Under the pieces are notes generated by a model that worked only from the letters and a program-made list of their open reading frames with translations, did no database searches and was not told the origin of the DNA. A program made the translations under genes and the position numbers. Shown piece after piece: positions 4,266 through 56,297 of a stretch of DNA of 57,771 nt. Source of the stretch: an uncultured Thermococci archaeon (lineage in GTDB: Archaea > Methanobacteriota_B > Thermococci > Methanofastidiosales > Methanofastidiosaceae). The DNA is taken from contig CAZUMN010000004.1 of assembly GCA_964621955.1 (NCBI GenBank), forward strand, positions 1 to 57,771, read 5' to 3'. How positions within the stretch are numbered: the stretch's first letter is position 1; each line of letters begins with the position of its first letter.

Positions 4266-4754
4266 GTGAAAGGGCGAGTAATTATTTTAGACGGATCCTC
4301 TGGGGAAAAAGAATCTCATGATAAAAAGAGAGTGAAAAATTTTCTTCTCACAAATCTAAAGAGAAACTGTGAAGAGTTTGAACACCTTGTAGAAGCGGTA
4401 AATATTGAAGAAGATCCGGAACTTAAAGGAAAAATTCTCAGTATCTCGAATAAATGTCATGAAATTTCTAATATGTCACTAAATATACTAAGTGAAGAAG
4501 TCGAAGAAGAAATTCTTGGGGAAATAGAAAATTGTGCTATGGGCCTTTCAGATATTAGAAACAGAATAAAGGCATGTGCAAAAAACAAAGATTCAGATTC
4601 GAATATAGAGAATATATTCGATTTTTTTGGGGACATGAGGGATTTGATGGATAGAATGGAATTTATTGATTCTCTCGAATCAGAATCAGCTGATTTACAA
4701 AAAACACTTAGAATAGTAATAAAGAAAAAGATTAAAGAAAACAGAAAGATTTAA
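4266..4754 (+). CDS. Hypothetical all-helical acidic protein
   Basis: 162 aa ORF, GTG start just downstream of the PAS gene; no recognised motif. Confidence 0.6.
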   Translation: MKGRVIILDGSSGEKESHDKKRVKNFLLTNLKRNCEEFEHLVEAVNIEEDPELKGKILSISNKCHEISNMSLNILSEEVEEEILGEIENCAMGLSDIRNRIKACAKNKDSDSNIENIFDFFGDMRDLMDRMEFIDSLESESADLQKTLRIVIKKKIKENRKI

Positions 4755-4853
4755 TTTAAGGATAAATCTTTATAATTATTTTGAAAGTTAATATGCGTTA
4801 ATCTTATAAATAAACGATTTTTTGTTTTTTAATACTTTAGTTTAGGTGTTTTT

Positions 4854-5999
4854 ATGAATAAATTCAGAATTTTTCTTGTTATTTTTATTATATTTTGCTC
4901 TTTATTCTATGGGATACATTCAGTAAGTTCAGACAACGGTAAGTTTACCTTTGTCATTGAGGAGATTGGAAAAAATACTACAACTCAAGGTTATGGCAAA
5001 CCTAAATATGTGGATGTAGAAGGTCAATTTGCAGTTATGAATTGGCACGAAAATCCTGGGGCCATATTTCTTTATAATATATCTGATCCAAAAATTCCAA
5101 AATATATAGGGCATGTCAGAGTAAACAATGGCCCAAATGCAGTAAGGATACGAAATGGATATGCTTATGCATCCCTTAACACAGGCTATTTAGTTATTGC
5201 ACAAATCAGCAATCAAAGCATCAATGTTGTAGGATCAAAAGATTTTGGGAATCAGATGTTTAATATCGATGTAAATGAAGAAGGAACTATCGTTGCTATG
5301 GCCGGAACTTATAATTCTGATGGACTTGTTATTGTTGATATAAAAAATAAATCTAATCCAACGTTAATTAGTAAAACTCCCTTCTCTGCTGGAGGAGTAG
5401 ATATTGAAGGTAGATATGCATTCATAACAAAGTACGATACTTCAGAATTAAGATGCTACGATATTTCAAATCCTTCGGTACCCATCCTTATTAGCAGTAT
5501 TAAAGTTGGGGAAATGCCAGTTCCTGTAAGAGTCTATGGTAAATATGCGTATGTTCAGGAATATAGCCTAAATAAAATACATATAGTTGATATTTCTAAT
5601 CCAGCAAATATGAAAATCGTTCTTTCTGATTTTGAAATACCTGGTGTTGTACCTAACGGTGGCGGCGTTGTAGTTGATACAAAAGGAAGTTTAATGTTTC
5701 TAGCTACCGGTTTGACTGGAAATGGAAAAGTAAGCATCTATGACATTAATAATATTGGAACTCCCAAAATGATAGCACAGTATGCTTATCCAAACAATGA
5801 AATAATTAATATGATTGCAATAAACGAAACTAATATCTTTGTTCCAAATTATACTAATAAATCACTCTCGATTCTTACTAGGCCAATTGTGGCATCTCCT
5901 ATCGAAAAAACTCTTCCTATGAGGGAAATTATGTCCATAATCAACTATCCCGGAAGACCTGTCGGTGCATTTATACATGATGTTAACATGTCTCGATAA
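4854..5999 (+). CDS. Secreted LVIVD-repeat beta-propeller protein
   Basis: Signal peptide; repeats LYNISDPKIP, LVIVDIKNKSNP, YDISNPSVP, IVDISNPANM. Confidence 0.85.
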   Translation: MNKFRIFLVIFIIFCSLFYGIHSVSSDNGKFTFVIEEIGKNTTTQGYGKPKYVDVEGQFAVMNWHENPGAIFLYNISDPKIPKYIGHVRVNNGPNAVRIRNGYAYASLNTGYLVIAQISNQSINVVGSKDFGNQMFNIDVNEEGTIVAMAGTYNSDGLVIVDIKNKSNPTLISKTPFSAGGVDIEGRYAFITKYDTSELRCYDISNPSVPILISSIKVGEMPVPVRVYGKYAYVQEYSLNKIHIVDISNPANMKIVLSDFEIPGVVPNGGGVVVDTKGSLMFLATGLTGNGKVSIYDINNIGTPKMIAQYAYPNNEIINMIAINETNIFVPNYTNKSLSILTRPIVASPIEKTLPMREIMSIINYPGRPVGAFIHDVNMSR

Positions 6000-6026
6000 T
6001 TAATTAAATTATTTTTTATAACAAGA

Positions 6027-7280
6027 TTACTTTCTCGTTAGTTCGACATTATTCTCAAAAATTAGTTTACCGGAGTTATAACTTTTATAATGGGCAATAT
6101 AGCTAAATGCAAAAGGATTGGCCTCTGGATAATTTGGCGATATCCCAACATTTCCCTTTGAGAGTGTTAAGACATTGCTTCCAAGACGACCAAAGAAAAA
6201 TCTGCTTTTTGTTGTATGATCCCCTGTTGGGTCAGCAGGTACCCACCCGTAAGGGGGCAAATAAAATTCAGCCCACATATGCCCCGCTGAGATATCAGAA
6301 CTATAAAGATAACCATGAACTAATCTTGAAGGAATCCCTTGAGAACGACACATTGCAACAAAAAGGGTAGCAAATTCAGTGCAATCACCTTTTCTATTGT
6401 AAAAAGCGTATTTTGCACCCAACTCCTGCTCCTGTACCTCGTAAGTGATGTTTTTTACTACCCACCCATATATAAGATCCGCTTTTTTATAAGGATTAGT
6501 TTCATTTCCCACTACAGCTTTTGCCATTGAAACAATTCCAGGATCGTCAGACTCAACCCTTTGACTTGGCTTTGTGTATTCTTTATACAAGCTTGAAGAA
6601 TAATCATAGGGTTCTACTTTAGAAGAGTCTATTGGAGTTGTGAAAGGATTTGCAGTAAAAGATATATTTTGAATTATTGTGATGGTAGAATTAGTGGGTA
6701 GTGAATTACTAAAATCCCAGTAGCATATCCTTGCACACGCCTCTGGTGCCAAGATAATTTGATCAGGTTCTGGATTTATACGTATAACAGATACATTTTG
6801 CTGAGTTCCACAGTTGACTGGTAAGGCCATCCATAGTTGTGTTTCTCCTACTTCAGCGTCAATATTTGTAATCTTTGTTGTGATAATTGCGTTATATGAC
6901 TGAGGGAGTTGGTACTCTAAGGGGCTATTTGGGGTATTTACCAATCCAATATAATAAAATATAGCAAGCAATAGCATAGCTCCAAGAAGAATTGAAGTTA
7001 TTGTCTTGAATCTCTTTTTATTATTTTCATCTCTTTCAAGTTTTTGATAATAAGTTTCTTTGCCCTCATCTGTCCCCATATTTGATTTATCGATATTTGT
7101 ATATGTCATTATAGGTGTGCCACATCTAGAACAATAAAATAATCCTTTACTATTTTCATGACCACATGAAAGGCAGGATATAGTCTCTTGTTCCAATGGA
7201 TATGTGCCACAATTAGGGCAATAATTAAAAGATGTGTCATATCCGCACATAGGGCATTTCATTAGGACACCAGATATCAA
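6027..7280 (-). CDS. Membrane-anchored transglutaminase-like protein with N-terminal double Zn-ribbon
   Basis: CPMC/CPNC/CLSC/CSRC; one TM; triad GDCTEF, GHMWAEF, WVPADPT. Confidence 0.85.
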   Translation of the reverse strand: MISGVLMKCPMCGYDTSFNYCPNCGTYPLEQETISCLSCGHENSKGLFYCSRCGTPIMTYTNIDKSNMGTDEGKETYYQKLERDENNKKRFKTITSILLGAMLLLAIFYYIGLVNTPNSPLEYQLPQSYNAIITTKITNIDAEVGETQLWMALPVNCGTQQNVSVIRINPEPDQIILAPEACARICYWDFSNSLPTNSTITIIQNISFTANPFTTPIDSSKVEPYDYSSSLYKEYTKPSQRVESDDPGIVSMAKAVVGNETNPYKKADLIYGWVVKNITYEVQEQELGAKYAFYNRKGDCTEFATLFVAMCRSQGIPSRLVHGYLYSSDISAGHMWAEFYLPPYGWVPADPTGDHTTKSRFFFGRLGSNVLTLSKGNVGISPNYPEANPFAFSYIAHYKSYNSGKLIFENNVELTRK

Positions 7281-19790: not shown

Positions 19791-21695
19791 TCATATCCCT
19801 AGTTTTTTTCTATTCGATTCAATGTGAGAAAGGATTGCATCAGATGCTTTAATTGGATCTTTCTCAACACTTAATATCCCGCCTGTAATATCTTTACAGT
19901 CGACGGTCAAAAGTTTTACAAGATTTGGGCCACCTGTCACAGGAGGAACTGGGTTGACATAGGTATATAATCCGAATGCCAATGCAAATATCGCATCTAT
20001 AGTTGCCTTCTGCTCCATATATTCTGGTGCAACTGCAGCAACGGGTAAATCTGGTACAGGCGCATCCCCTAAAGCCTTGGAAATTACACCAATTAAATCT
20101 GCAAGTCTTCCTGTGTCAGTACATGTCCCATAACTTAGTACTGGAGGGATATTCAATAGAGTGCATAATTTCTTTAATCCTGGGCCTGCCTTGTCTTTAG
20201 CTTCTAAGCTACAGAGCCCACCAACTTGTACTGCGGCATTTCCACATCCAAGAGATAAAACTAGTATATCCCTCTTTATCAACTCAGTTACCATTTTTAT
20301 TGTGTGAACATCCTGGCCTGAATCTCTTAATGAAGTACAAGAAACCATTCCGGCGACGCCTCTTATTGTACCATCTTTAATTGCATTTAATAGAGGTTCA
20401 ATTGTTCCACCTAATGCTTCAACTATACTTTCAGTTGAAAATCCAACTATCGCTTCTTTAGTTGGAAGGCCTACAACAGGGTCAATTGAACTCCTTCGCT
20501 CCTTGAAGTTGTCAATTGCCATTTGTAAAAGTGATGCAGCCTGTTTCTCAGCCTCGTTTGGGAGATAATCCACTCTTTCAGTAATGCCTTCAAATGCTAC
20601 AACCTCGCTTGCAGGCACCAATTTGAATTTGTATTTGTTTGCATATATTGGGTCAATCGGCATGGAACAGTTCATATCTGCCACAAATATATCTATACAG
20701 CCACTTGCCATTATTGCTTCCTGCATAATCCAGTTACCAGTGTATCCATAGAAAACATTGTCCATCTCCCATCTTTGAATTATTTCTTGGCCTGTTTCAA
20801 TATTTGCTATTATTCTAAGGCCTTTGGCGCCTACGGCCTTTGCCTTTTTTTGCCATTCTTCTTTTCTTGCAAGCTGGATCATTGCAAATCCCAAGAAAGG
20901 TTCATGACCATTTGGTAAAACATTGACATAGTCTGGATCTAAAATTCCCAGATCTACTCTCATTTTATGGGGTCTTGGAATCCCAAAAAGAATGTCTTGA
21001 GTAAATTCATTAATTATTTGACTTTGATACGCCATTGCTATTCCGATTCTCATTGCTTTTAAGGCTAAACTTACATAATATCCATCTACATTTGTTAAAC
21101 AAGAACTTGTGGAGAACATTATTTCCCCATGAACCCCTCCAGGGAATATCCCAAGTTTTTTCCATGCATTTTTTCTCTCGGGCGGGGCTAATATTTCTAC
21201 AATTTTGCTTTGCTCAGAATATTTTCTATTAAAGTCCTCTTCAACAAAATCACTAAATCTTAAAGCAATTTCGTTAATGCTCCCACTTGTATCCACTCCA
21301 AGTCTTTTAGCAAATGATCTTAATTTTTCTGGCTCTTTTATTTGAAAAGGAGTTTCACCTTTGGCAGTTGCCCTTAGAGTTTTTATTGTTTGTTCGGTGT
21401 GGTAATGGTAAGTTGAAGTACCCAATACATTCCTCAAAAGCATCATTCTCATTGCCATGCCATCTGCGGTAATCCCACAGACCCCTCTTTTATCAATTGA
21501 TGCGTCAGAACGACATGGACCATTTGAACAAAGGTCACATCGAACTCCGCCTTGGCAGAAAGGACATCTTTTATCAGGGTCTCCCCCAAATCCTTGAGCT
21601 TCGTATCTATCCCAAATATTTGTTATATTGTCATCTTTAATTTTCTTATACATTTTTTTTACAGATTCATGATGAGATACTCTCTCGCCTTCCAT
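19791..21695 (-). CDS. cooS: CooS-family CO dehydrogenase-like protein (deviant C-cluster ligands)
   Basis: CPFC...CDLCSNGPC...VCG, GHEP, DMNC, VSC, LGC, GTCTD, EQKA. Confidence 0.92.
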   Translation of the reverse strand: MEGERVSHHESVKKMYKKIKDDNITNIWDRYEAQGFGGDPDKRCPFCQGGVRCDLCSNGPCRSDASIDKRGVCGITADGMAMRMMLLRNVLGTSTYHYHTEQTIKTLRATAKGETPFQIKEPEKLRSFAKRLGVDTSGSINEIALRFSDFVEEDFNRKYSEQSKIVEILAPPERKNAWKKLGIFPGGVHGEIMFSTSSCLTNVDGYYVSLALKAMRIGIAMAYQSQIINEFTQDILFGIPRPHKMRVDLGILDPDYVNVLPNGHEPFLGFAMIQLARKEEWQKKAKAVGAKGLRIIANIETGQEIIQRWEMDNVFYGYTGNWIMQEAIMASGCIDIFVADMNCSMPIDPIYANKYKFKLVPASEVVAFEGITERVDYLPNEAEKQAASLLQMAIDNFKERRSSIDPVVGLPTKEAIVGFSTESIVEALGGTIEPLLNAIKDGTIRGVAGMVSCTSLRDSGQDVHTIKMVTELIKRDILVLSLGCGNAAVQVGGLCSLEAKDKAGPGLKKLCTLLNIPPVLSYGTCTDTGRLADLIGVISKALGDAPVPDLPVAAVAPEYMEQKATIDAIFALAFGLYTYVNPVPPVTGGPNLVKLLTVDCKDITGGILSVEKDPIKASDAILSHIESNRKKLGI

Positions 21696-21764
21696 TTTTA
21701 CTCCTCACAAATTTATCTTTGTTTTATTATTATATATAGTTTTCTTTAAAAAAAGGAAAATAAA

Positions 21765-22085
21765 TTAATCTGTTAAGCCCAATAATATTGCCAGATTATC
21801 CTTAGCTTTGAGAGAGTGGGGTGCATTCTTAGGCATGAAAATAAATACTCCAGGAGTCATTTCAATCTCTTCATCAACAAGTGTAAAGGTACCTGTCCCA
21901 CTTAAGACTTGTACAATTCCCGCCTTAGTTGAAGTGTGTGTGTCTATATTTGTCCCAGCAGATAGACACATCAATGTATAGTTGTATGTTTTGGACAATG
22001 CTAATACAGTACTAAAAATGCCCTCTTTTGGAAACTGCATAGTTTTATTCAAATCTTTCCAAAATCCTTTTTCCATTATATCCAT
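21765..22085 (-). CDS. Cupin domain protein
   Basis: HTS...VQVLSGTGTF...MPKNAPHSLKA. Confidence 0.85.
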   Translation of the reverse strand: MDIMEKGFWKDLNKTMQFPKEGIFSTVLALSKTYNYTLMCLSAGTNIDTHTSTKAGIVQVLSGTGTFTLVDEEIEMTPGVFIFMPKNAPHSLKAKDNLAILLGLTD

Positions 22086-22909
22086 TCCTCCTTTATTATA
22101 TCTCCTTTGATCCCAACTACTATTAATTTTATCGGAATCTTTCGAGTTGCACTATCTAAAGCCTTCTTGGCTATTTGAAGAAGACCAGAGCAACACGGAA
22201 CTTCCATTACTAAAACTGTTAATGTGTTAATCTTTGCCTCATCTATCATCTTTTTTATTTTCTCTACATAGACATCTCTATTTGAATCAAGTTTTGGGCA
22301 TGCTATTACTAATGTCTTACCTTTAAGGAAATCTTTGTGAAAATCGCCTATGGAAAAGGCTGTACAATCTGCGGCAAGTAAAACATCCTTCCCAAGAAAA
22401 TAAGGTGCATTTGGTGAGACCAGATGAAGTTGAATTGGCCATTGTCTAAGTTGAGAGGACCTCTTTCCTGTCTCATTTACTTTATTTTCTTCTTTTGAGA
22501 ATTCCATAATTTTTGAACCGGGACAAGATGCCCTATGTAAATGACTTTCTTCCTTAATAGGATTTTCTATACCTTTCTCTTCAAGGAAATCTTTTGCCTG
22601 TTTTAGATATTTATCTGCACCGTGATCCTTTAAGTGCTGAAGATGAGCCTTGATAGTATTTTTTCCATGTTTTACTATATTCTCCATTACTTTTCTTTCA
22701 TCGTATTCTTCAGCTTCTCTTTCTTCAACAAATATAGCACCTTCTGGACAGTTTCCAATGCAGGCTCCAAGTCCATCACAAAATAGATCACTAACTAATC
22801 TCGCTTTGCCATCTATTATTTGAAGCGCTCCTTCAGGGCAATTGGGAACACAAATCCCACATCCATTACATTTTTCCTCATTAATATTGATTATTTCTCT
22901 CTTTACCAT
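22076..22909 (-). CDS. 2x[4Fe-4S] ferredoxin-domain protein
   Basis: CNGCGICVPNCP, CDGLGACIGNCP, QWPIQL, AADC, IACPKLD, MEVPCC. Confidence 0.88.
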   Translation of the reverse strand: MVKREIININEEKCNGCGICVPNCPEGALQIIDGKARLVSDLFCDGLGACIGNCPEGAIFVEEREAEEYDERKVMENIVKHGKNTIKAHLQHLKDHGADKYLKQAKDFLEEKGIENPIKEESHLHRASCPGSKIMEFSKEENKVNETGKRSSQLRQWPIQLHLVSPNAPYFLGKDVLLAADCTAFSIGDFHKDFLKGKTLVIACPKLDSNRDVYVEKIKKMIDEAKINTLTVLVMEVPCCSGLLQIAKKALDSATRKIPIKLIVVGIKGDIIKEEWI

Positions 22910-23865: not shown

Positions 23866-24287
23866 CTAATAAAAGGAAAAGAAGGTAAAAAAAATTTGAT
23901 TATCAAGTATATCATGATAAACCAGATAATAATTATTGAAAATGTTACTATCCATTTTGACTTTACACTTATTGGTTCACATATAGCCTTGTTTCTACAA
24001 TCCTGAAAAACTTCTCTTGGAATCAATTTAATGATTAGATATATTGTAACTGAGACAATCAAAATATCGTCTAGATACCCGATGATAGGGATAAAATCTG
24101 GTATGAGATCAATAGGGCTGATAAAATATCCTAAAAGCAACAGAATTATGAGCTTGACATACCAGGGGACTCTTGGGTCTCTATATGCTTTATAAAGAGC
24201 ATAAATATCTGTTTCGAGACTTTTTGTTTTTTCTTTCAATTTTTTGATATTAATCATGAAATCCCTAAATAAGATTGAAGTCTTCAA
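23862..24287 (-). CDS. DUF1232 (YkvA) family membrane protein
   Basis: DPRVPWYVK, YFISPIDLIPDFIPIIGYLDD. Confidence 0.92.
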   Translation of the reverse strand: MKTSILFRDFMINIKKLKEKTKSLETDIYALYKAYRDPRVPWYVKLIILLLLGYFISPIDLIPDFIPIIGYLDDILIVSVTIYLIIKLIPREVFQDCRNKAICEPISVKSKWIVTFSIIIIWFIMIYLIIKFFLPSFPFIS

Positions 24288-25671
24288 AGATTATATTTCT
24301 TGGTTTGACACCCAGTTTGATAAATTGATCTGCAAGTTCCATCATCATTTCATTGGGGCCACATATAAAAATTAATTTATTAGTTATTTTCTCTTTGGCA
24401 CCTGATAATTGTATTATATCTTGTGCAGAAAGTCTTCCAAGATCGTTTGAGGTCCATATCCTATATCGGATGTTATTCTTATTTTTGATAATTTCTTTTA
24501 TTTCTTTATCGTAGAATGCATTCGTTTCGTCTTTACATGACCATAGGAAATCAATTTTATTATTTTTTGGTAAATCCTCATATGTTAACATACTAAGGAA
24601 AGGAGTTACCCCTATCCCTCCTGCAATCCATATCATATCCTTTTTTTCAAAAAGAGATTTTTCGCCAAATCTACCATAAGGCCCGTATAGGTATACCGTA
24701 TCCCCAACATTAACTTTTGGTAGATGATTCGAAGTAAAATCCCCTGACCTTTTTGCCGAGATTCTAATCAACTCATCACTCTTAGAACTTGATATAGAAA
24801 ATGGAAATATTTCAAATGATTTTTCAAAATTTAAAAATTTGATAAAGATAAATTGACCAGGATTGAAATTCATTTTTTTGCTAAGTGTTTTAAATTTTAT
24901 TTCAGTTATATCACCAATGATCTTGACATCTTTAACTTCAGCCCTAACTCTAGGGCCAATTAATTGATAGAAAAATAGCATATAGAAATATGAAATAATT
25001 CCGACTAATGAGAAAATAAGAATCCATGCTCTAAGTACTGGATATTGAATTATATCTCGCCCTGCAACTAATGCATGCCAGGTAGCCAATATAAGAACGA
25101 CCCCCATAAACTTGTGTGTAAGGTGCCAGATTTTGTAAGGTAGCCTTATTACAAGAGTAAATATCAAAAGAATAACAAGGAGAAAAAAAGATACAATCCC
25201 ATATGTATAAGGAATATTCAACCCAGGGACAAGATATATTGATATTAAATTCAGATTAGGAAAGACTCTAATAATTAAAAAAAGAGGGTGCAGTAGTATC
25301 ACAATCATTGTAATCTGCCCCAAAAAGTGGTGAGCTTTGTAGACCTTATCGAGGCCCCCAAAAACTGACTCCATGAAATGCCATCTTATTGATAAAAAAA
25401 TTGTTAGAGATAATAAACATATTCCAATCAATGCTGATACTTTAACAATAATTAATAAGAATTGAAAATTCCCCCCCATCCTATTGGAGAACCATAGTAA
25501 AAAAGTGATTAATCCAACGAAAAATATAATCCCAAGACTCTTATACCCAAATTGATTTCGATTGATTTTGTCAAGTAATCCTAATGGAACTATTTTTTTT
25601 ATATTGATTCTGGAATTTTTTCTACTCATGGTAACACTGTTAATAATATCTTTATTTATTAATAGAAACAT
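24265..25671 (-). CDS. Ferric-reductase-like heme b membrane protein with FAD/NAD-binding domains
   Basis: TM His residues (KAHH, LLHP, LTHK, TWHA), PFSISS, AGGIGVTPF, CGP. Start may be ATG 25629. Confidence 0.85.
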   Translation of the reverse strand: MFLLINKDIINSVTMSRKNSRINIKKIVPLGLLDKINRNQFGYKSLGIIFFVGLITFLLWFSNRMGGNFQFLLIIVKVSALIGICLLSLTIFLSIRWHFMESVFGGLDKVYKAHHFLGQITMIVILLHPLFLIIRVFPNLNLISIYLVPGLNIPYTYGIVSFFLLVILLIFTLVIRLPYKIWHLTHKFMGVVLILATWHALVAGRDIIQYPVLRAWILIFSLVGIISYFYMLFFYQLIGPRVRAEVKDVKIIGDITEIKFKTLSKKMNFNPGQFIFIKFLNFEKSFEIFPFSISSSKSDELIRISAKRSGDFTSNHLPKVNVGDTVYLYGPYGRFGEKSLFEKKDMIWIAGGIGVTPFLSMLTYEDLPKNNKIDFLWSCKDETNAFYDKEIKEIIKNKNNIRYRIWTSNDLGRLSAQDIIQLSGAKEKITNKLIFICGPNEMMMELADQFIKLGVKPRNIIFEDFNLI

Positions 25672-25755: not shown

Positions 25756-26862
25756 ATGCATTATCACATCATACTGACAACGAAATGCAATTCCCAGTGC
25801 AAATACTGTTACGAAAAGTCAATGAATGATTTTGATTTCGATATTGAACAAAAAGTCACTCTTGATTTATCTGCACCTGAATCTAGTGAAATCGATGTAA
25901 ATGCTCTTAAGAAATTTATTAATAAGGATAAAAATCCTGTGATTATCTTCTATGGAGGAGAACCGCTTCTCCAAATAAATAAAATCAAGGAGATTATTGA
26001 TAATATTGATGCGCCTTTTAGAATGCAGACGAACGGAAAGCTTTTGGATAAACTTCCAATAGAATACCTAGATAAAATTGGTAAGATTTTAGTTTCTATT
26101 GATGGGGATAGAGAGAAGACTGATTCAAATAGGGGTAAAGGGACTTATAACTTAGTAATGAAGAATATTTCGGAAATAAAAGGAAAAGATTATCCTGGGG
26201 AGATTATTGGTAGGATGACTTTGAACTTGCAATCGCCAGATATTTTTGAACAAGTTTTACATTTGGTTGATAGTGGCTTTTCATCCGTCCATTGGCAGAT
26301 AGATGCAGGCTTTTACGCATATGATTATGATAAAGAAAAATTTAGTTTTTTTGTAAAAGAATACAACAGTTCAATCACAAAACTTATTGATTATTGGATG
26401 GGCCAAATGAGGAATCAAAAAGTTCTAAAACTTTATCCATTCATTGGAATAGTGGAGAGTCTTCTCAAAAGTGAGAAAACGTTTCTAAGATGCGGTGCAG
26501 GCCATAGTGGGTATGCTATTCGCACAGATGGAAAATTGGTGGCTTGCCCAATCATGACTTGGATCCAAGATTTTGTTTGTGGCGATTTAGATTCCGACCC
26601 TACAGAATTAAAAAAATTTCCAATGGCAGAAAGATGTAAGAACTGTGAGATTAACACTGTTTGTGGCGGGAGATGTCTCTACTGGCAGCACCTAAAATTA
26701 TGGCCAGAAGAGGGAAATGAATTAATATGTAATACAATAAAACATCTTGTAATCGAGTTAAAAAATAAAATGTCTGAAATTAAAGAACTTATTGACAAAG
26801 GAATAATCAGCTACAAAGATTTTGAATATGAGAAATATTTTGGACCAGAGATAATACCATAA
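25756..26862 (+). CDS. Radical SAM/SPASM protein (TIGR04084/AF0577-like)
   Basis: CNSQCKYC, FYGGEPL, CGAG...ACP, CKNC...CGGRC, YEKYFGPEIIP tail. Confidence 0.8.
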   Translation: MHYHIILTTKCNSQCKYCYEKSMNDFDFDIEQKVTLDLSAPESSEIDVNALKKFINKDKNPVIIFYGGEPLLQINKIKEIIDNIDAPFRMQTNGKLLDKLPIEYLDKIGKILVSIDGDREKTDSNRGKGTYNLVMKNISEIKGKDYPGEIIGRMTLNLQSPDIFEQVLHLVDSGFSSVHWQIDAGFYAYDYDKEKFSFFVKEYNSSITKLIDYWMGQMRNQKVLKLYPFIGIVESLLKSEKTFLRCGAGHSGYAIRTDGKLVACPIMTWIQDFVCGDLDSDPTELKKFPMAERCKNCEINTVCGGRCLYWQHLKLWPEEGNELICNTIKHLVIELKNKMSEIKELIDKGIISYKDFEYEKYFGPEIIP

Positions 26863-40902: not shown

Positions 40903-42486
40903 TTATCTCGCCTCGTATTCAATATTAAATCCTTTTTTTATTATGATTGCCTTTTTCCAATTTTTATTCTCTTTTGGATAATCACTTCTATAATGGGCCC
41001 CCCTAGATTCTGTTCTTTCTAGAGCAGATATGGCTACAGCTTGGGCAACAAAAAGAATATTTCTTAATTTGAAGTATTCCAAATAATTTTGTGTTGTGTT
41101 TATCTTTTCAAATTTATTTTTTATTTCAGAGACCTCCTTGATTGCAGTTGTTATTCCTTCTTTGTTTCTAATAATCCCAAGGTATCTCCACATAATCTCT
41201 TTTATCTCTTTAATCAGTTCTTTTTCTGAAGAACTTTCAATAAGTTTAGGTAATGATTCAATATACTTCTTGGTATCTACGTAATCAAAATCATTTGCTA
41301 ACGCAAATTCAGATGCATTTTTTCCTGCAATTTCTCCAAACACTAAAGTTTCAGCTAAAGCGTTGCCTGCAAGCCTATTGGCCCCGTGTACGCCACCTGC
41401 AGTTTCTCCACAGGCGTATAACCCTTTGACATTTGTTTCACATTTATTATTTATTTTTAATCCGCCCATGAAGAAATGACATGAAGGTTTAACAAGAAGA
41501 TTATCTTTAGTTAGATCAATCCCTTTAGTTAAGAAAAACTCTAATTCTTTTGAATATTTTGTTTTAAGAATACTCTCAGGAACTTCTTTATATGATATAA
41601 AAACTCCACCGTCGATACCTCTGCCTTCAAGTGCCTCGGTGAAAATAGCTCTTGACATTACATCTCGAGTAGTTTTTTCTAAAAGGTTTGAATCATATTT
41701 TCCAATGAATCTTTCACCTTTACTATTAAGAAGAACAGCACCATCAGTAAAGATGAATGGTAAAACTAGATAGGATTTAAGTGCTACAGTGGGGAAAAAT
41801 TGTACATATTCCATATCTATCAAAGAAGCCCCAACATCTAATCCTAAGTAATATCCATCACCTTCAACATCGGAAGGATTTGTGGAATTTCTATAGATAT
41901 TTCCTGCCCCACCAGTTGCAATTATAATAGATTTAAATGAGATATCCAAAAAATTTTTTCCATCGCACACTATTCCGGATACAACTCTACCGTTCTTTTC
42001 AAAGAGTTTGATTAAATGCTTTCCTTCCAAAAATTTTATATCGTTATTTTTAGCATATTCCATTAGTTTTAATGGAATTATTCTCCCACACCCAGGGCCT
42101 GGTGGCTCTACTCTTACAGTTCGTGCAACTGAATTCCCACCGGATAGATTAAGGACAAAATTTCCATTTTCTTTTTTATATTGAATCCCAAAATCTTCAA
42201 GTGAAAGAATGGCGCTTTTTGTATTTTGAGAAAGAATTTTTGCTAATTTTGGGTCTGATACATTTGCTGAACCTTTCATTATGTCTTCATAATACAGATC
42301 AGAAGAATCATTTTCAGATAATGGCGCATTTAAAATTCCTTCAGAAATTGAACTGCATCCACCCTTTCCTACATATCCTTTGGTCAATATTATTACGTCT
42401 TTGACATATTTTTTAGATTCTATGGCGGCCCTTATCCCTGCAAGCCCACCGCCAACTACTAAGACATCACAATTTATCTTTTCCAT
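40903..42486 (-). CDS. FrdA/SdhA/NadB-family FAD-dependent oxidoreductase with altered substrate site
   Basis: GGGLAG, ATGGAG, HFFMGG, HGANRLAGN, ESRGAHYRSDYP. Confidence 0.88.
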   Translation of the reverse strand: MEKINCDVLVVGGGLAGIRAAIESKKYVKDVIILTKGYVGKGGCSSISEGILNAPLSENDSSDLYYEDIMKGSANVSDPKLAKILSQNTKSAILSLEDFGIQYKKENGNFVLNLSGGNSVARTVRVEPPGPGCGRIIPLKLMEYAKNNDIKFLEGKHLIKLFEKNGRVVSGIVCDGKNFLDISFKSIIIATGGAGNIYRNSTNPSDVEGDGYYLGLDVGASLIDMEYVQFFPTVALKSYLVLPFIFTDGAVLLNSKGERFIGKYDSNLLEKTTRDVMSRAIFTEALEGRGIDGGVFISYKEVPESILKTKYSKELEFFLTKGIDLTKDNLLVKPSCHFFMGGLKINNKCETNVKGLYACGETAGGVHGANRLAGNALAETLVFGEIAGKNASEFALANDFDYVDTKKYIESLPKLIESSSEKELIKEIKEIMWRYLGIIRNKEGITTAIKEVSEIKNKFEKINTTQNYLEYFKLRNILFVAQAVAISALERTESRGAHYRSDYPKENKNWKKAIIIKKGFNIEYEAR

Positions 42487-45021: not shown

Positions 45022-46377
45022 TTATTTTAATTTTTTTAGTACAAGTTCAGCACAAATTTGAACAGGATCTATAGTTGGAGACAAAGGAGGGCTATAACAA
45101 TTCTCAATTTTTGCCAAATCGTTGATCTTAATCCCTTTTTGAACAGCAAAGCCTACTGCAAGTGTTCTAGCAAATATACCTTCTTCACCTATGGCTTGGA
45201 ATCCCAATATATCGCCTTCAGTAGACGCTAGAATTTTGATAATTATCTCTTTATACCCTGGATAATAATCTGCCCTAGATTTACCTTTGTATCTGGCCTT
45301 AACATATTCTATCCCTAAATTCGATAAATTATCTTCTGTTAATCCAAATGCCCCAATTTTTAAATCGAAGAAATCCATTATTGTAAGATTAATTACGGGA
45401 TTTAATTCTAAATTTCCCCCAACAGAATTTATTCCAGCAATTTTTCCACTCCTAACAGCATTTGTTCCTAGGCTTGAAGAAAATTGCTCACCTGTGAAAA
45501 AATATTTAACGCTTGCGCAATCCCCGCAAGCATATATGCCATCAATAGATGTTTGAAGTCTTGAATCTGTCTTTACCCCTTTTTGGATCTCAATTCCACA
45601 ATCTTTAGCTAAATAAGTATTTGTTCGGGTTCCAGAAGCCATTATAATAATGTCTGCATCTATTAATTCATTATCTGCAATCAATCCATTTACTTTGTCT
45701 TCACCAGATATACTAATAACATTCTTATCTGTTACTAGGTTAATCCCCTTACTCTTCAAATAATCTACAATTAATTCACTCATGTCCATGTCGATTTGCT
45801 GCCTTAATGGCCTATTTTCATTAGAAACTATAGTTACATCTAGTCCTCTATTCTTCAGAGCATAAGCCATTTCTAGGGATATCCGACCTGAAATGCACCC
45901 TTTACATCCTGCTTTGCACCCCCATCCATATGCATATATAATTGCTTTTTTTGACGCATCTATTTTTTTGGATAGATCTTTAGCAGCATCTAAAGTTCTT
46001 ATGAAATAGATACCTTCAGGATATTTATGGCCAATTTTATAATTGCATGGGATAGCGCCAGTTGCAAGAATCAGGGAATCATACTCTATTTCAGAATTAT
46101 CTTCAAGAATTACTTTTTTATCGCGGGGATTTATTTTCTTAATTTCTTTTTGAAGCAAAAGTTTTATTTTTTGTTTTTCATAGAATTCTTTTGGAAATAT
46201 TATAAGCTTATCAAAGTTTTCGATATCGCCAGATACTGCATATGGGAGGCCACATAATGAATATTGAGGAGAATTTTGTTTTTCAATTAATGTAATCTCT
46301 GCATTTTTATCAAATTTTCTTGCTTCTAGAGCCGCTTCTGAGCCTGCTGCGCCTCCTCCAACAATTACAAGTTTCAT
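45022..46377 (-). CDS. NADH oxidase/CoA-disulfide reductase family flavoprotein with a Cys insert
   Basis: GGGAAG, YSLCGLPY, ATGA, YACGDC, YSPP; start moved to ATG 46377. Confidence 0.88.
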   Translation of the reverse strand: MKLVIVGGGAAGSEAALEARKFDKNAEITLIEKQNSPQYSLCGLPYAVSGDIENFDKLIIFPKEFYEKQKIKLLLQKEIKKINPRDKKVILEDNSEIEYDSLILATGAIPCNYKIGHKYPEGIYFIRTLDAAKDLSKKIDASKKAIIYAYGWGCKAGCKGCISGRISLEMAYALKNRGLDVTIVSNENRPLRQQIDMDMSELIVDYLKSKGINLVTDKNVISISGEDKVNGLIADNELIDADIIIMASGTRTNTYLAKDCGIEIQKGVKTDSRLQTSIDGIYACGDCASVKYFFTGEQFSSSLGTNAVRSGKIAGINSVGGNLELNPVINLTIMDFFDLKIGAFGLTEDNLSNLGIEYVKARYKGKSRADYYPGYKEIIIKILASTEGDILGFQAIGEEGIFARTLAVGFAVQKGIKINDLAKIENCYSPPLSPTIDPVQICAELVLKKLK

Positions 46378-46492
46378 ATAAATCGTCTCTAAATATAAAA
46401 ATGAAGTATTATTTAAATATATTTTTAATACCATAGGTATGGTATCTAATTAGATATGAAATATAAATTAAAAAAGAATATTTAATATTTCA

Positions 46493-46840
46493 TTAATGCA
46501 ATTTGTCAAGTCTGTTTACTAAGTCATCTTTCATTAGGCAACTGATAGCGTCATCTACTGTTTGTTCCTCAGTGATTACGGCCATTATATTATGTCTAAC
46601 TAAGTCATTATATATTCCTTGTCCCATTCCATAACATATGACTAAATTACAGTCTTGTATGTTATTAATCATACTTGAATGGTCACAGCTACCACACTGC
46701 CCGTTACTTTTTCCAATATTTTGTCGGTATTCTTCTCTAATTATGACGTTTTCTTTTATTTCAAAAACTCTGAACCCTAGAGTTCTACCAAAGTGATGAG
46801 ATATGGTCACTTTGTCGTCAGTTGCTATGGCTACCTTCAT
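46493..46840 (-). CDS. NifX/NifB-family (FeMo-co biosynthesis-like) protein
   Basis: KVAIAT, HHFGR, VICYGMG. Confidence 0.85.
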   Translation of the reverse strand: MKVAIATDDKVTISHHFGRTLGFRVFEIKENVIIREEYRQNIGKSNGQCGSCDHSSMINNIQDCNLVICYGMGQGIYNDLVRHNIMAVITEEQTVDDAISCLMKDDLVNRLDKLH

Positions 46841-46959: not shown

Positions 46960-47364
46960 TTGGAGATAGGAACATATTTCTTTAGAGATGATTTATTTTA
47001 CTCTAAAACACATGAATGGATGAAAATTGAAGGCGATACATGTATTATCGGGATAGATGATTATTCCCAAAGGGAGATAGGAGAAATAGCTTATATCGAA
47101 CTTCCTGCAATAGGTACTAATGTCAAACAATTTGGATTATTATGCCAAATCGAATCTGTTAAGACTGTGTTGGATATTTTTTCCCCTATGTCTGGAACAA
47201 TAATAGAAACTAATAAAGAAATTGAAAATTCGCCCGATCTTTTGAATACTAAACCATACGATTCATGGATATGCAAGATTAAATCCTCAGACCTTGATGA
47301 AAAAATAAATTTAATGAACATAAATGAATACATAGAATTCATTAAAGAAGTAATAGAAAAATAA
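46960..47364 (+). CDS. gcvH: Glycine cleavage system H-type lipoyl carrier
   Basis: HEW, GIDDYSQ, IESVKT (lipoyl-Lys), SPMSG, PY. Confidence 0.88.
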   Translation: MEIGTYFFRDDLFYSKTHEWMKIEGDTCIIGIDDYSQREIGEIAYIELPAIGTNVKQFGLLCQIESVKTVLDIFSPMSGTIIETNKEIENSPDLLNTKPYDSWICKIKSSDLDEKINLMNINEYIEFIKEVIEK

Positions 47365-54482: not shown

Positions 54483-55118
54483 TTAATCTATAAACTCAAC
54501 ACTTACTTCTCTTACATCCCATAGAGTTTCAATCTTTTCCTTAATCTCTTCTCTTATCGAATTGGCGAATTGATGATTGGAGGGCAGATCTATTGTAAGT
54601 AAAACTTTACCGTTGTTGATTTCTATTTTTTTAATAAGATTTGTTCTTACTACATCAAGCCCTGTTAAGGGATTCATTACCTTCTTCAATCTATTGTTCA
54701 CAATCTCTATTGTTGTAGGGACTTTCTCTGCTATAATTCCATGTTTTTCTTCATAATTTTGAATTGCTGCCCTTAGTCCTTCAACTGCCAATACCGAGCA
54801 GTGCGCTTTTATTGTCGGTAATCCCCCTAAAGCATCTGCTGCCTGTTGCCAAGTAATTTTCTTTGCTTCCTCAAGAGTTTTTCCTTTAGCCATATCAGTA
54901 ATAATCGAGCCTGTTGCAATATTGGATGCACAACCATAAGATTCAAATTTAATATCCTCAATAATCTTATTTACAGGATTTACTTTTATATAAACTGAAA
55001 CCATGTCCCCACATGCAGGGCTTCCTTCGGTTGCTTTGCCGTCTGGATTCTCTATTTTACCTACATTATGTGGATGACGAAAATGTTCCAACACTTTTTC
55101 ACTATATGGAAATTTCAT
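54483..55118 (-). CDS. iscU: IscU/NifU scaffold fused to a DUF59 (MIP18/SufT-like) domain
   Basis: ACGD, YGC, KAHC; C-terminal NPLTGLDVV...VSVEF without the usual Cys. Confidence 0.9.
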   Translation of the reverse strand: MKFPYSEKVLEHFRHPHNVGKIENPDGKATEGSPACGDMVSVYIKVNPVNKIIEDIKFESYGCASNIATGSIITDMAKGKTLEEAKKITWQQAADALGGLPTIKAHCSVLAVEGLRAAIQNYEEKHGIIAEKVPTTIEIVNNRLKKVMNPLTGLDVVRTNLIKKIEINNGKVLLTIDLPSNHQFANSIREEIKEKIETLWDVREVSVEFID

Positions 55119-55133
55119 ATCGTTCCCTCCTTA

Positions 55134-56297
55134 TCAATTCTTACCCAACGGGCTAATCTTTCTAAGTTCCTTTACAACTTCGGATATATTATTCACAATC
55201 AAATCAACATCATCAATAGTATTGTATCTACCAAATGTAAATCGAACAGAACCATGCGCCCTCTCGTGATCACCACCGATACCCATTATAACATGGCTTG
55301 CCTCAAGAGATTTACTGAAGCATGCAGAACCTGTACTGACCGAAAACCCCCTCATATCAAGATGAAGCGTAATTGATTCTCCTTCTACATAGTGAAAGGT
55401 AATGTTCGCATTTTGAGGAATTCTTTTTTCTTTATGCCCATTCAAAGTTGTGTCTGGTATCTCAGATAAAACTCTTTTAATGAGGTGATCTCTCATCTGC
55501 TCCATTTTTTTAGTCTCTTCAGGAGTTACTAGTTCAATAGCCTTTGCAAACCCTACTGCCCCGGGGATATTTTCTAATCCTGCACGCTTGTTAAATTCTT
55601 GAAATCCTCCGTCCATCCACTTTGAGAGCGGAGTATTCTTACGGATAAATAATGCTCCCGTCTCTTTAGGCCCATGGATAGTGTGGGCGGACAAAGTAAC
55701 TAGACCAACTGGAATCTCCCTAACATCAATTGGAACTCTTGTGAAGGTATGTGTTGCATCTGTGTGAAAAAGCACACTTTTATTTTTACAAATGTTTGCT
55801 ATTTTAGCAATATCTTGCATTGTGCCAATCTCTTGATTGGCATGCTGGATTGATACTAGAATAGTGTCTTTTCTTATAGATTTTTCAAGTTGATCAAAGT
55901 CAATCAGCCCATATTGGTCAACATCAAGATAGGTAACTTCAAATCCCTGTTTTTCAAGACTCCTTGCACTATTAAGAACTGGAAAGTCTTCAATTTTTGA
56001 TACAATTATATGCTTGCCTTTTTTTTCTTTCAGTGCCATTGCAACTCCTTTTAAGGCCATGTTACTAGATTCAGTGCTTCCTGAAGTGAAAATAATCTCT
56101 CCAAAATCAGCTCCAATGTAATTGGCAATAAACCCTCTAGCCTCATCTAGAGCTTCTCTCGCTTCAATACCTAATGAGTATCCAAATTCTGAAGTTGCAA
56201 CTGCATATACTTCAAAGAAATATTTTTTCATAGATTCTAAAACTCTTTCGTCCAATCTAGTCGCAGCCGCATTATCGAGGTAAATATTTTTTTCCAT
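55134..56297 (-). CDS. iscS: IscS/NifS-like protein lacking the PLP-binding lysine
   Basis: YLDNAA, FTSGSTES, NQEIG, GSAC, SVRF; SAHT in place of SAHK. Confidence 0.9.
   Translation of the reverse strand: MEKNIYLDNAAATRLDERVLESMKKYFFEVYAVATSEFGYSLGIEAREALDEARGFIANYIGADFGEIIFTSGSTESSNMALKGVAMALKEKKGKHIIVSKIEDFPVLNSARSLEKQGFEVTYLDVDQYGLIDFDQLEKSIRKDTILVSIQHANQEIGTMQDIAKIANICKNKSVLFHTDATHTFTRVPIDVREIPVGLVTLSAHTIHGPKETGALFIRKNTPLSKWMDGGFQEFNKRAGLENIPGAVGFAKAIELVTPEETKKMEQMRDHLIKRVLSEIPDTTLNGHKEKRIPQNANITFHYVEGESITLHLDMRGFSVSTGSACFSKSLEASHVIMGIGGDHERAHGSVRFTFGRYNTIDDVDLIVNNISEVVKELRKISPLGKN

Follow-up and report, generated by a model that had tools for sequence, protein, structure and literature searches.

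A GcvH-linked flavoprotein disulfide reductase of Candidatus Methanofastidiosum with a possible Cys4 metal site in its pyridine-nucleotide loop

Flavoprotein disulfide reductases of group 3, among them CoA-disulfide reductase (CoADR), Npsr and the NADH oxidases (Nox) and peroxidases (Npx), combine a GxGxxG motif for flavin adenine dinucleotide (FAD) and a single redox Cys with a second motif, GxGxxG or GxGxxA, which comes with an acidic (NADH) or basic (NADPH) set of residues at the end of strand beta2. Here we analysed a gene of this fold in a 57,771-nt stretch of DNA from Candidatus Methanofastidiosum (contig CAZUMN010000004.1 of GenBank assembly GCA_964621955.1, positions 1 to 57,771; hereafter the window). 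The gene (45022..46377, minus strand) encodes a 451-aa disulfide reductase with a single redox Cys and the CoADR/Nox/Npsr fold, in an allelic form that carries a Cys-rich insert. It shares with the enzymes of the group (6pfz, 4fx9, 3cgb, 1npx) the fold, the FAD GxGxxG, Cys42, the active-site Tyr pair and the dimerisation domain. The second motif with either set of beta2-end residues is not found in it. Unlike the group-3 enzymes, the window protein has the Cys-rich insert in its NAD(P)H loop and a Ser for the ribose-binding Glu, has no rhodanese domain, scores far under the CoADR and Nox cut-offs and branches with proteins whose genes are linked to gcvH. Our preferred reading, which we hold tentatively and at somewhat short of an even chance, is that it is a lipoyl-GcvH-linked disulfide reductase whose pyridine-nucleotide site has been turned into a Cys4 metal site, probably iron-sulfur (Fe-S), for electron entry.

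Three other described systems bear on this reading. Dihydrolipoyl dehydrogenase (L-protein or E3) is also an FAD disulfide oxidoreductase of the same superfamily, and relatives of the window protein are encoded in the L-protein slot or right after gcvH; unlike this enzyme, which has a CxxxxC redox disulfide, the window protein has one Cys and no pyridine-nucleotide motif. In the MvhAGD-HdrABC structure, the thioredoxin reductase-like FAD domain of HdrA is surrounded by [4Fe-4S] clusters. The likeness here is one of concept, in that Fe-S, rather than NAD(P)H, feeds a disulfide reductase-type flavin of a methanogen, the Fe-S of the window protein being predicted; HdrA differs in its separate ferredoxin-like domains, its several clusters, its lack of a flavin-side redox Cys and its large complex, whereas the window protein stands alone and has at most one site. 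Thioredoxin reductases of the FFTR and DFTR types have likewise given up NADPH for another donor, in anaerobes or cyanobacteria (PMC12796991, PMC8154056). They differ in belonging to the low-Mr thioredoxin reductase family with a CxxC, and in taking electrons directly at the flavin with no Cys insert or cluster, whereas the window protein has its Cys4 in the Rossmann loop. A Cys4 site within the GxGxxG loop is thus unlike any system compared (group-3 enzymes, L-protein, FFTR or HdrA). The searchable literature holds no description of such a Cys insert in the CoADR/Nox/Npsr family, and an earlier note on this stretch had also found the architecture unfamiliar.

The Cys insert and the nucleotide site

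All features of the flavoprotein gene given below are on the minus strand. The gene start was set at MKLVI, which is common to all homologues; the mechanical open reading frame (ORF) runs on to 46434. The protein has the Pfam domains Pyr_redox_2 (PF07992), Pyr_redox (PF00070) and Pyr_redox_dim (PF02852), and a PDB sequence search returned A. fulgidus Npsr (AfNpsr; 6pfz, E=3e-59), B. anthracis CoADR and P. horikoshii CoADR as the closest solved structures. Its AlphaFold2 model (pLDDT 93.3, pTM 0.91) superposes in Foldseek with TM-scores of 0.91-0.93 on 6pfz, 5l1n and 3nta. Aligned with homologues, the FAD-binding motif (G7-G-G9-A-A-G12; 46342..46359) is intact, with G7 and G12 invariant and G9 nearly so. 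The redox-active Cys42 of YSLC42GLPY (46252..46254) is kept in 126/126 aligned homologues; its numbering matches Cys42 of NADH peroxidase, and its surroundings, S(F/Y)xxC in the family, read Q-Y-S-L-C here. With Y371 and Y428 also retained, the substrate-side residues are all in place.

The nucleotide side is another matter. In the NAD(P) Rossmann unit, strand beta1 is separated from the pyrophosphate-binding helix by a 13-residue insert, YGWGCKAGCKGCI (residues 150-162; 45892..45930), which carries C154 (45916-45918), C158 (45904-45906) and C161 (45895-45897). Where the family has VVIG-AGLIGLE, the window protein reads IIYA-YGWGCKAGCKGCI-SGRISLE, and the first Gly of the NAD(P)H GxGxxG, a Gly in 106/106 insert-less homologues, is Ala149. 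At the end of strand beta2, Ser185-Asn186-Glu187 (45817..45825) stand in place of the NAD-ribose-binding Glu, or of the A-R-K of the NADPH-type allele described below. Ser185 (45823-45825) aligns with Glu183 of AfNpsr, a position that is Glu in 76/106 of the other homologues, and Glu187 is confined to the Cys clade. For Glu183 of AfNpsr, docking models suggest a hydrogen bond to the NAD ribose hydroxyls (PMC7969121). The earlier note had claimed an intact FAD motif and redox Cys, a CX3CX2C sequence (Cys codons within 45895-45918) in place of the NAD(P)H loop and a Ser for the acidic beta2-end residue, all of which agree with these alignments.

Further clade-specific changes surround the insert. 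Arg165 (45883..45885), one residue past the second Gly of GxGxxG, is invariant in the Cys clade and is L/F/Y/A in all other homologues; it aligns with the Phe of AGFIGLE in AfNpsr. Its position, aromatic or hydrophobic in relatives, is that of the flavin gate (Y159 in Npx, F161 in Npsr), which caps the flavin re-face in these enzymes. Cys111 (46045..46047), four residues past the ATG motif, is a candidate fourth metal ligand: it is Cys in 20/20 insert-bearing proteins and Thr in the insert-less allele, and in 103 other homologues the position is mostly F/V/I/A/S, with Cys never among these commonest residues. Y113 (usually Pro), Y119/P120 and Y148 are also particular to the clade and likewise belong to parts of the NAD site. 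The changes near the insert (C111, Y113, A149, the insert itself, R165, S185 and E187) all fall on elements of the NAD site; by its sequence, then, the pyridine-nucleotide site of the window protein is specifically remodelled. C111, C154, C158 and C161 are invariant in 20/20, in keeping with the three or four conserved Cys of iron-sulfur flavoproteins, and given the fourth, co-occurring Cys a complete Cys4 metal site is plausible.

Residues 155-160, inside the insert, are the sole stretch of the model with a pLDDT below 50, and the insert-less allele is modelled there as a textbook Rossmann loop with a pLDDT of 98. A low-confidence insert in a model with an overall pLDDT of 93 is as expected of a loop that would fold around a cofactor. 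Taking the chain length from R165, four residues from C161, as a bound, the Cys triad should lie roughly within 15 Å of the flavin.

The insert is present in 20/20 clade members and in 0/106 other homologues. It was found in 19 homologue clusters at 72-91% identity, drawn from NCBI, JGI, ENA and Logan, several of them named Candidatus Methanofastidiosum, and in none outside the clade. Over codons 148-166, pairs among five lineages differ by 7-13 synonymous and 0-1 non-synonymous changes, against a ratio of about 1:1 to 2.4:1 in the rest of the gene for the same pairs (Fisher p = 0.004-0.04 for the insert region versus the rest, three pairs tested). The three Cys codons switch between TGC and TGT across lineages. 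Purifying selection on the insert is far stronger than on the remainder of the gene. An artefact or pseudogene could be ruled out, given the 19 clusters from four sources, the intact ORFs and the large excess of synonymous changes. A phmmer search with residues 102-200 over 1.84 billion representatives clustered at 50% identity matched just the one that stands for the clade itself and a chance repeat protein (P0121); its power to pick up unrelated Cys inserts elsewhere in the family is limited. The DNA of the insert resembles a tandem 12-nt duplication (GGG TGC AAA GCA / GGA TGT AAA GGG, encoding G-C-K-A / G-C-K-G, with 8/12 nt the same), which hints at how the Cys loop may have originated.

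The earlier note had likened CX3CX2C to the three-Cys [4Fe-4S] spacing of radical SAM enzymes. The spacing is indeed the same, but the fourth Cys (C111) would leave no open iron site, so the analogy is weak; membership of that superfamily was rejected, as there is no Radical_SAM Pfam match, the loop sits in a Rossmann fold and a fourth Cys co-occurs. A C-x3-5-C-x2-C pattern with a remote Cys is also compatible with [2Fe-2S] ferredoxins, and plant-type ferredoxins have C-x4-C-x2-C ... C, a similar spacing. Among the 55 predicted proteins of the window, CX3CX2C occurs twice (0.03 expected). The second is in a TIGR04084-family (AF0577) radical SAM/SPASM protein (25756-26862, plus strand).

Two alleles at one locus

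The nearest insert-less proteins (P0020-22) are 57-60% identical to the Cys-insert protein and are encoded at the same locus in close relatives. This allele reads GFGIIALE ... VTIVARKARPMR, that is, GxGxxA, an Ala at the beta2 end, an adjacent Arg and an Arg at +7 (beta2 residues V-A-R-K-A-R-P-M-R), and it appears to be of the NADPH type. The same pattern is known from engineering: in the description of the structure match, LbNOX was converted to the NADPH-specific TPNOX by G159A, D177A and A178R. TPNOX reportedly also carries P184R. What was built in TPNOX is thus displayed naturally by the insert-less allele, and of this pattern the window gene keeps just Arg192 and a variable residue 186, with Glu187 added. 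Lys174 of the NADPH-type allele corresponds to the invariant Glu187 of the Cys clade.

Locus order is the same for both alleles: gcvH (divergent), the NifX-like gene, the flavoprotein gene, UbiX (convergent), ThrRS, the TfrA/NadB-like gene and AdSS. By their flanking proteins, the genomes fall into species groups A (the window, L001 and L006), B (L002 and L089) and C (L005 and L091). The Cys allele is found in the window, L001, L002, L005 and L091, and the NADPH-type allele in L006 and L089; flanking proteins are 84-97% identical between genomes with opposite alleles. For example, L001 (7434-8902) and L006 (5917-7320) carry opposite alleles and come from one sample, ERZ25039527, and L002 and L089 are likewise opposite. 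Between L001 and L006, identity is 96% for ThrRS, 93% for the TfrA-like protein, 90% for GcvH, the NifX-like protein and UbiX, and 60% for the flavoprotein. At the DNA level the flanks are 87-96% identical, the intergenic region and the gene 46-74%, and UbiX again 84-96%. The recombination boundaries are sharp around the gene and its promoter.

The upstream intergenic region (46378..46492, minus strand) lies inside this divergent cassette and has an allele-specific promoter-like element, AATATATTTAAATAATA, which is common to the Cys-type loci, the insert-less loci sharing a different one. A palindrome upstream of the window gene, ACCATAGGTATGGT, is not conserved at other loci. Divergence within each class follows the genome (86% identity for L006/L089, 79% for the window/L002), from which we conclude that the two forms are old cassettes that can replace each other. 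Were the electron donor the sole difference, an NADPH-type allele would be expected at this locus in genomes that are otherwise near-identical, as is the case. Nothing else moves with the flavoprotein cassette; with no partner gene moving with it, the donor of the Cys form would be a general cellular carrier. Two features of the segment 9852-15361 set L001 apart from the window. It has an extra gene for a 1173-aa DUF7948/CARDB surface protein between UbiX and ThrRS, and its ThrRS appears as two gene calls, one for the editing domain and one for the catalytic part, perhaps through long-read indel errors.

Linkage to GcvH and other lipoyl proteins

One small gene separates the flavoprotein gene from gcvH, which is transcribed divergently (46960..47364, plus strand) and encodes the lipoyl-carrier protein that we propose as substrate or partner, with lipoyl-Lys68 at 47161-47163. 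The window GcvH scores above the NCBIfam gcvH cut-offs (127.5 vs 117 and 123.1 vs 115.85), and the Lys of its ESVK motif, lipoyl-Lys68, is invariant. In the earlier note the flavoprotein had been called CoADR-like. This description holds for the fold, and an identity as CoADR proper was rejected: the window protein is under all three NCBIfam equivalog cut-offs (TIGR03385, NF007123 and NF010037), with 299 vs 578.8, 269.7 vs 458 and 172.5 vs 394 bits, and it likewise fails those for Nox. A canonical Lpd/E3 was also rejected (TIGR01350, 87.8 vs 408.8 bits), with Cys42 standing alone and no CxxxxC.

Relatives of the flavoprotein at 31-41% identity are repeatedly linked to genes for lipoyl carriers. 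Among the 27 best archaeal GTDB loci, largely from Bathyarchaeia, 19 have gcvH as the next gene upstream in the same orientation, and so do L007 and a Promethearchaeota contig (L095); no Methanofastidiosa genomes were among the GTDB matches listed. In Ca. Bathyarchaeum tardum, LipS1, gcvH, a winged-helix (wHTH) gene and the flavoprotein form one same-strand cluster (L015 3087-6335), and the small 73-aa winged-helix-like protein of this cluster was found again in L009. In bacteria, the order gcvT-gcvH-gcvPA-gcvPB-flavoprotein-lplA-lipA was seen, whole or partial, in L036, L037, L040, L042 (242-9226) and L045, where the flavoprotein takes the slot of the L-protein. The hosts are Desulfobacterota, a Brocadiia metagenome-assembled genome (MAG) and an unclassified bacterial MAG. 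These gcv-operon flavoproteins are CoADR/Nox-like with a single Cys and a T-K-R (NADP-type) beta2 end, and their position suggests an unrecognised class of glycine-cleavage L-protein. In about 45 bacterial loci of the CoADR-RHD/Nox type, no gcvH adjacency was found.

A further link leads to the sHdr-LbpA system of sulfur oxidation, in which a dihydrolipoyl dehydrogenase that re-oxidises LbpA has been postulated (PMC6067878). Locus L093 (1-9983) has the order TusA-DsrE-HdrC/B-like-LbpA-flavoprotein-LbpA-radical SAM-lipoate ligase (LplA+DUF116), and its flavoprotein, P0026, encoded between the two LbpA/GcvH genes, is 41% identical to the window protein. The 10 kb covered of this sHdr-like cluster contain no HdrA-type gene. 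The window gene differs in having no Hdr-like (HdrBC), TusA or DsrE genes in the window, and in a neighbouring GcvH that scores as bona fide gcvH. In the Promethearchaeota contig L095, a pair of HdrC-like/HdrB-like genes (Fer4 + CCG; 4698-6079) lies 1.5 kb downstream of gcvH and the flavoprotein.

In a neighbour-joining tree, computed without support values and at identities of 32-41%, the window clade falls inside a gcvH-linked superclade, and P0044, which resembles P. horikoshii CoADR (PhCoADR; 392 bits to 3kd9), is placed apart from it. Members of the wider clade are not CoADR proper, being CoADR-like in fold alone and genomically tied to GcvH and lipoyl proteins. The searchable literature contains no characterised member of the gcvH-linked clade, and no report of such a CoADR-like clade or of a ferredoxin-dependent L-protein.

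Electron entry, rival explanations and neighbouring genes

Candidatus Methanofastidiosum is an H2-dependent methyl-thiol-reducing methanogen (PMC7382037). The window protein would act there as a homodimeric FAD single-Cys disulfide reductase working with lipoyl carriers (GcvH/LbpA), that is, as a non-canonical L-protein. Its substrate side would be unchanged, with Cys42 on one face of the flavin exchanging with the GcvH lipoyl disulfide or, possibly, with a different di- or persulfide. The opposite face would have seen the NAD(P)H site of an NADPH-type ancestor rebuilt as a Cys4 site (C154-x3-C158-x2-C161 plus C111). Such a site would most probably house a [4Fe-4S] or [2Fe-2S] cluster, located in the usual place of the dinucleotide pyrophosphate/NMN and close enough to the flavin for electron transfer. 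The cluster could receive single electrons from a general carrier of low potential, most likely ferredoxin reduced by Mvh-Hdr bifurcation or a CooS-type carbon monoxide dehydrogenase (CODH); FAD would gather two of them and pass them to Cys42 and the lipoyl group, yielding dihydrolipoyl-GcvH. The insert-less allele would run the same reaction with NADPH, and the NADPH-type allele suggests that the physiological direction is reductive. The parts of this proposal are not equally firm. What the sequences show is the anatomy of the site, its conservation and uniqueness, the alternative allele and the gcvH linkage of the clade; metal, cluster type, loss of NAD(P)H use, donor, substrate and direction are inferred. 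Loss of NAD(P)H binding in the Cys allele is quite probable, and metal binding by the Cys4 site nearly as probable. That the metal is Fe-S is about an even call, and the same can be said of lipoyl-GcvH as the physiological partner. The fullest form of the proposal, which we regard as rather doubtful, is that of a stand-alone ferredoxin:lipoyl-GcvH oxidoreductase, the first flavoprotein disulfide reductase with a Rossmann dinucleotide loop rebuilt as an Fe-S site, whose Cys form wild Methanofastidiosum keep as an exchangeable alternative to an NADPH-dependent form.

Several observations weigh against the proposal. The window has no gcvT/gcvP genes and no genes for lipoate attachment (ligase or synthase). 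In Methanofastidiosum gcvH is divergent and relatives keep the gene order of the entire region, so that adjacency within the genus is weak evidence. CX3CX2C with a remote Cys fits none of the catalogued Fe-S families, the 26-residue loop found no match among PDB sequences even at E=10, and the modelled conformation of the insert loop is of low confidence. Residues of the NADPH 2'-phosphate type are kept (Arg192 and often Lys/Arg186), making residual nucleotide binding possible. Finally, we infer ferredoxin as the donor from physiology alone.

Four other explanations deserve weighing, of which three concern the donor side. The Cys4 could be a structural zinc site or a rigid plug that closes the nucleotide pocket, with no Fe-S relay and the flavin reduced directly by an external carrier, be it ferredoxin, the donor of FFTR, or F420H2, the donor of the DFTR-type thioredoxin reductase of methanogens. 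Four invariant Cys suit Zn as much as Fe-S, the window protein matches no Fe-S family motif, and cluster-free disulfide reductases that lack an NADPH motif and are fed directly by ferredoxin do exist (FFTR; PMC12796991, PMC8154056). We nonetheless consider this unlikely. A plain plug would need neither four invariant Cys nor a nearly invariant 15-residue stretch, the host is a strict anaerobe rich in Fe-S whose IscS/IscU are encoded in the window, and C-x3-C-x2-C is generally unusual for Zn, which is usually held by paired CxxC knuckles. Retention of NAD(P)H binding, with the insert looping outward as an accessory or regulatory metal site (a redox/O2 sensor, a place for a partner to dock or a third port for electrons), would account for the kept R192, the frequent K/R186 and the intact N-terminus of the pyrophosphate helix (G164), and the loop conformation, at a pLDDT below 50, is uncertain enough to allow it. 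However, the insertion falls within the tight beta1-alphaA turn, Ala replaces the first GxGxxG Gly, which 106/106 of the other homologues keep, Ser stands for the ribose-binding acid, and the Lys174 of the NADPH type is replaced by the invariant Glu187, which would repel a 2'-phosphate; this makes retention quite improbable. A little less probable still is a metal-free thiol relay. In low-Mr thioredoxin reductase, a CxxC stacks on the flavin. C158-x2-C161 is likewise a CxxC, the loop takes the place of nicotinamide entry beside R165 at the flavin-capping position, and the conserved neighbour is a lipoyl protein, so that the loop might form a second thiol/disulfide centre on the flavin re-face, in a dithiol:disulfide transhydrogenase that could, for example, take electrons from dihydrolipoyl-GcvH and hand them via FAD to a substrate bound at Cys42. 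Two Cys would suffice for this, yet four are invariant and co-occur, no precedent is known in the fold group, and the NADPH-type residues of the allelic partner favour a simple donor swap over two-substrate chemistry.

The fourth explanation concerns the substrate side and is separate from the question of the donor. The enzyme might reduce CoA-disulfide, CoA-persulfide or polysulfide, in sulfur detoxification by a methanogen that uses methanethiol or dimethyl sulfide, with the gcvH synteny a coincidence. Its closest solved relatives are CoADR and Npsr enzymes, the homologue P0014 is named CoADR in the public record, and the host lives on methylated thiols (PMC7382037); moreover, the collinearity of the region across Methanofastidiosum means that adjacency there counts little. 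What makes us regard this as unlikely, if less so than the zinc site, is that every CoADR equivalog cut-off is missed, that true PhCoADR-like proteins are on a separate branch, and that linkage to gcvH or LbpA is seen time and again, independently, in Bathyarchaeia, Promethearchaeota, the gcv operons of Desulfobacterota and the sHdr-like cluster.

If the Cys4 does hold Fe-S, a 13-residue insertion and one point change would suffice to turn an NAD(P)H flavoenzyme into a ferredoxin-type one. This would offer a compact blueprint for rewiring redox enzymes and would hint at the way in which anaerobes exchange pyridine nucleotides for carriers of low potential; were the ferredoxin:lipoyl-GcvH oxidoreductase proposal true in full, it would be a natural minimal case of a switch from pyridine-nucleotide to iron-sulfur/ferredoxin input. 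The two alleles in near-identical genomes are a matched pair ready for biochemistry. Independent of the insert, the loci point to a widespread, uncharacterised single-Cys 'L-protein' family with GcvH/LbpA partners, ranging over Bathyarchaeia, Asgard archaea, the glycine-cleavage operons of Desulfobacterota and an sHdr-like sulfur cluster. It bears on which enzyme recycles lipoyl-GcvH/LbpA where canonical dihydrolipoyl dehydrogenase is lacking, and on whether those lipoyl systems run toward glycine synthesis or cleavage.

The small gene between gcvH and the flavoprotein gene (46493..46840, minus strand) encodes a protein of the NifX/NafY family (PF02579) with an invariant C49-x2-C52-x-H54, which scores below the NifX equivalog cut-off (37 vs 112 bits). 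The earlier note had proposed that it helps to load the cluster. The NifX-like protein is 86-91% identical beside both alleles, for example 91% beside the NADPH-type allele in L006. Its gene is fragmented by a stop or frameshift in L005 (4607-4956), and is missing or reduced in L091 (a 33%-identical remnant, 2288-2637) and L092 (723-1072), all of which keep the Cys allele. A role as an obligatory or specific cluster-loading helper was therefore rejected, since the protein also accompanies the insert-less allele and has been degraded or lost in the L005/L091/L092 lineage.

Other genes of the window touch on Fe-S and redox metabolism. A CooS-type Ni-CO dehydrogenase (TIGR01702, 730 bits) is encoded with a cupin and a 4Fe-4S ferredoxin-domain protein (19791-22909, minus strand), and this CODH might supply reduced ferredoxin. 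Fe-S assembly genes, one for a cysteine desulfurase resembling IscS and one for IscU with a fused FeS_assembly_P domain (54483-56297, minus strand), lie about 8 kb from the flavoprotein gene. The TfrA/NadB-like FAD protein (40903-42486, minus strand) is under all NCBIfam cut-offs (488 vs 718 bits for thiol:fumarate reductase TfrA), with no adjacent TfrB. A 468-aa membrane protein (24265-25671, minus strand) has a ferric-reductase-like transmembrane domain with FAD_binding_8 and NAD_binding_1, a NOX/FRE architecture that is unexpected for a strictly anaerobic methanogen.

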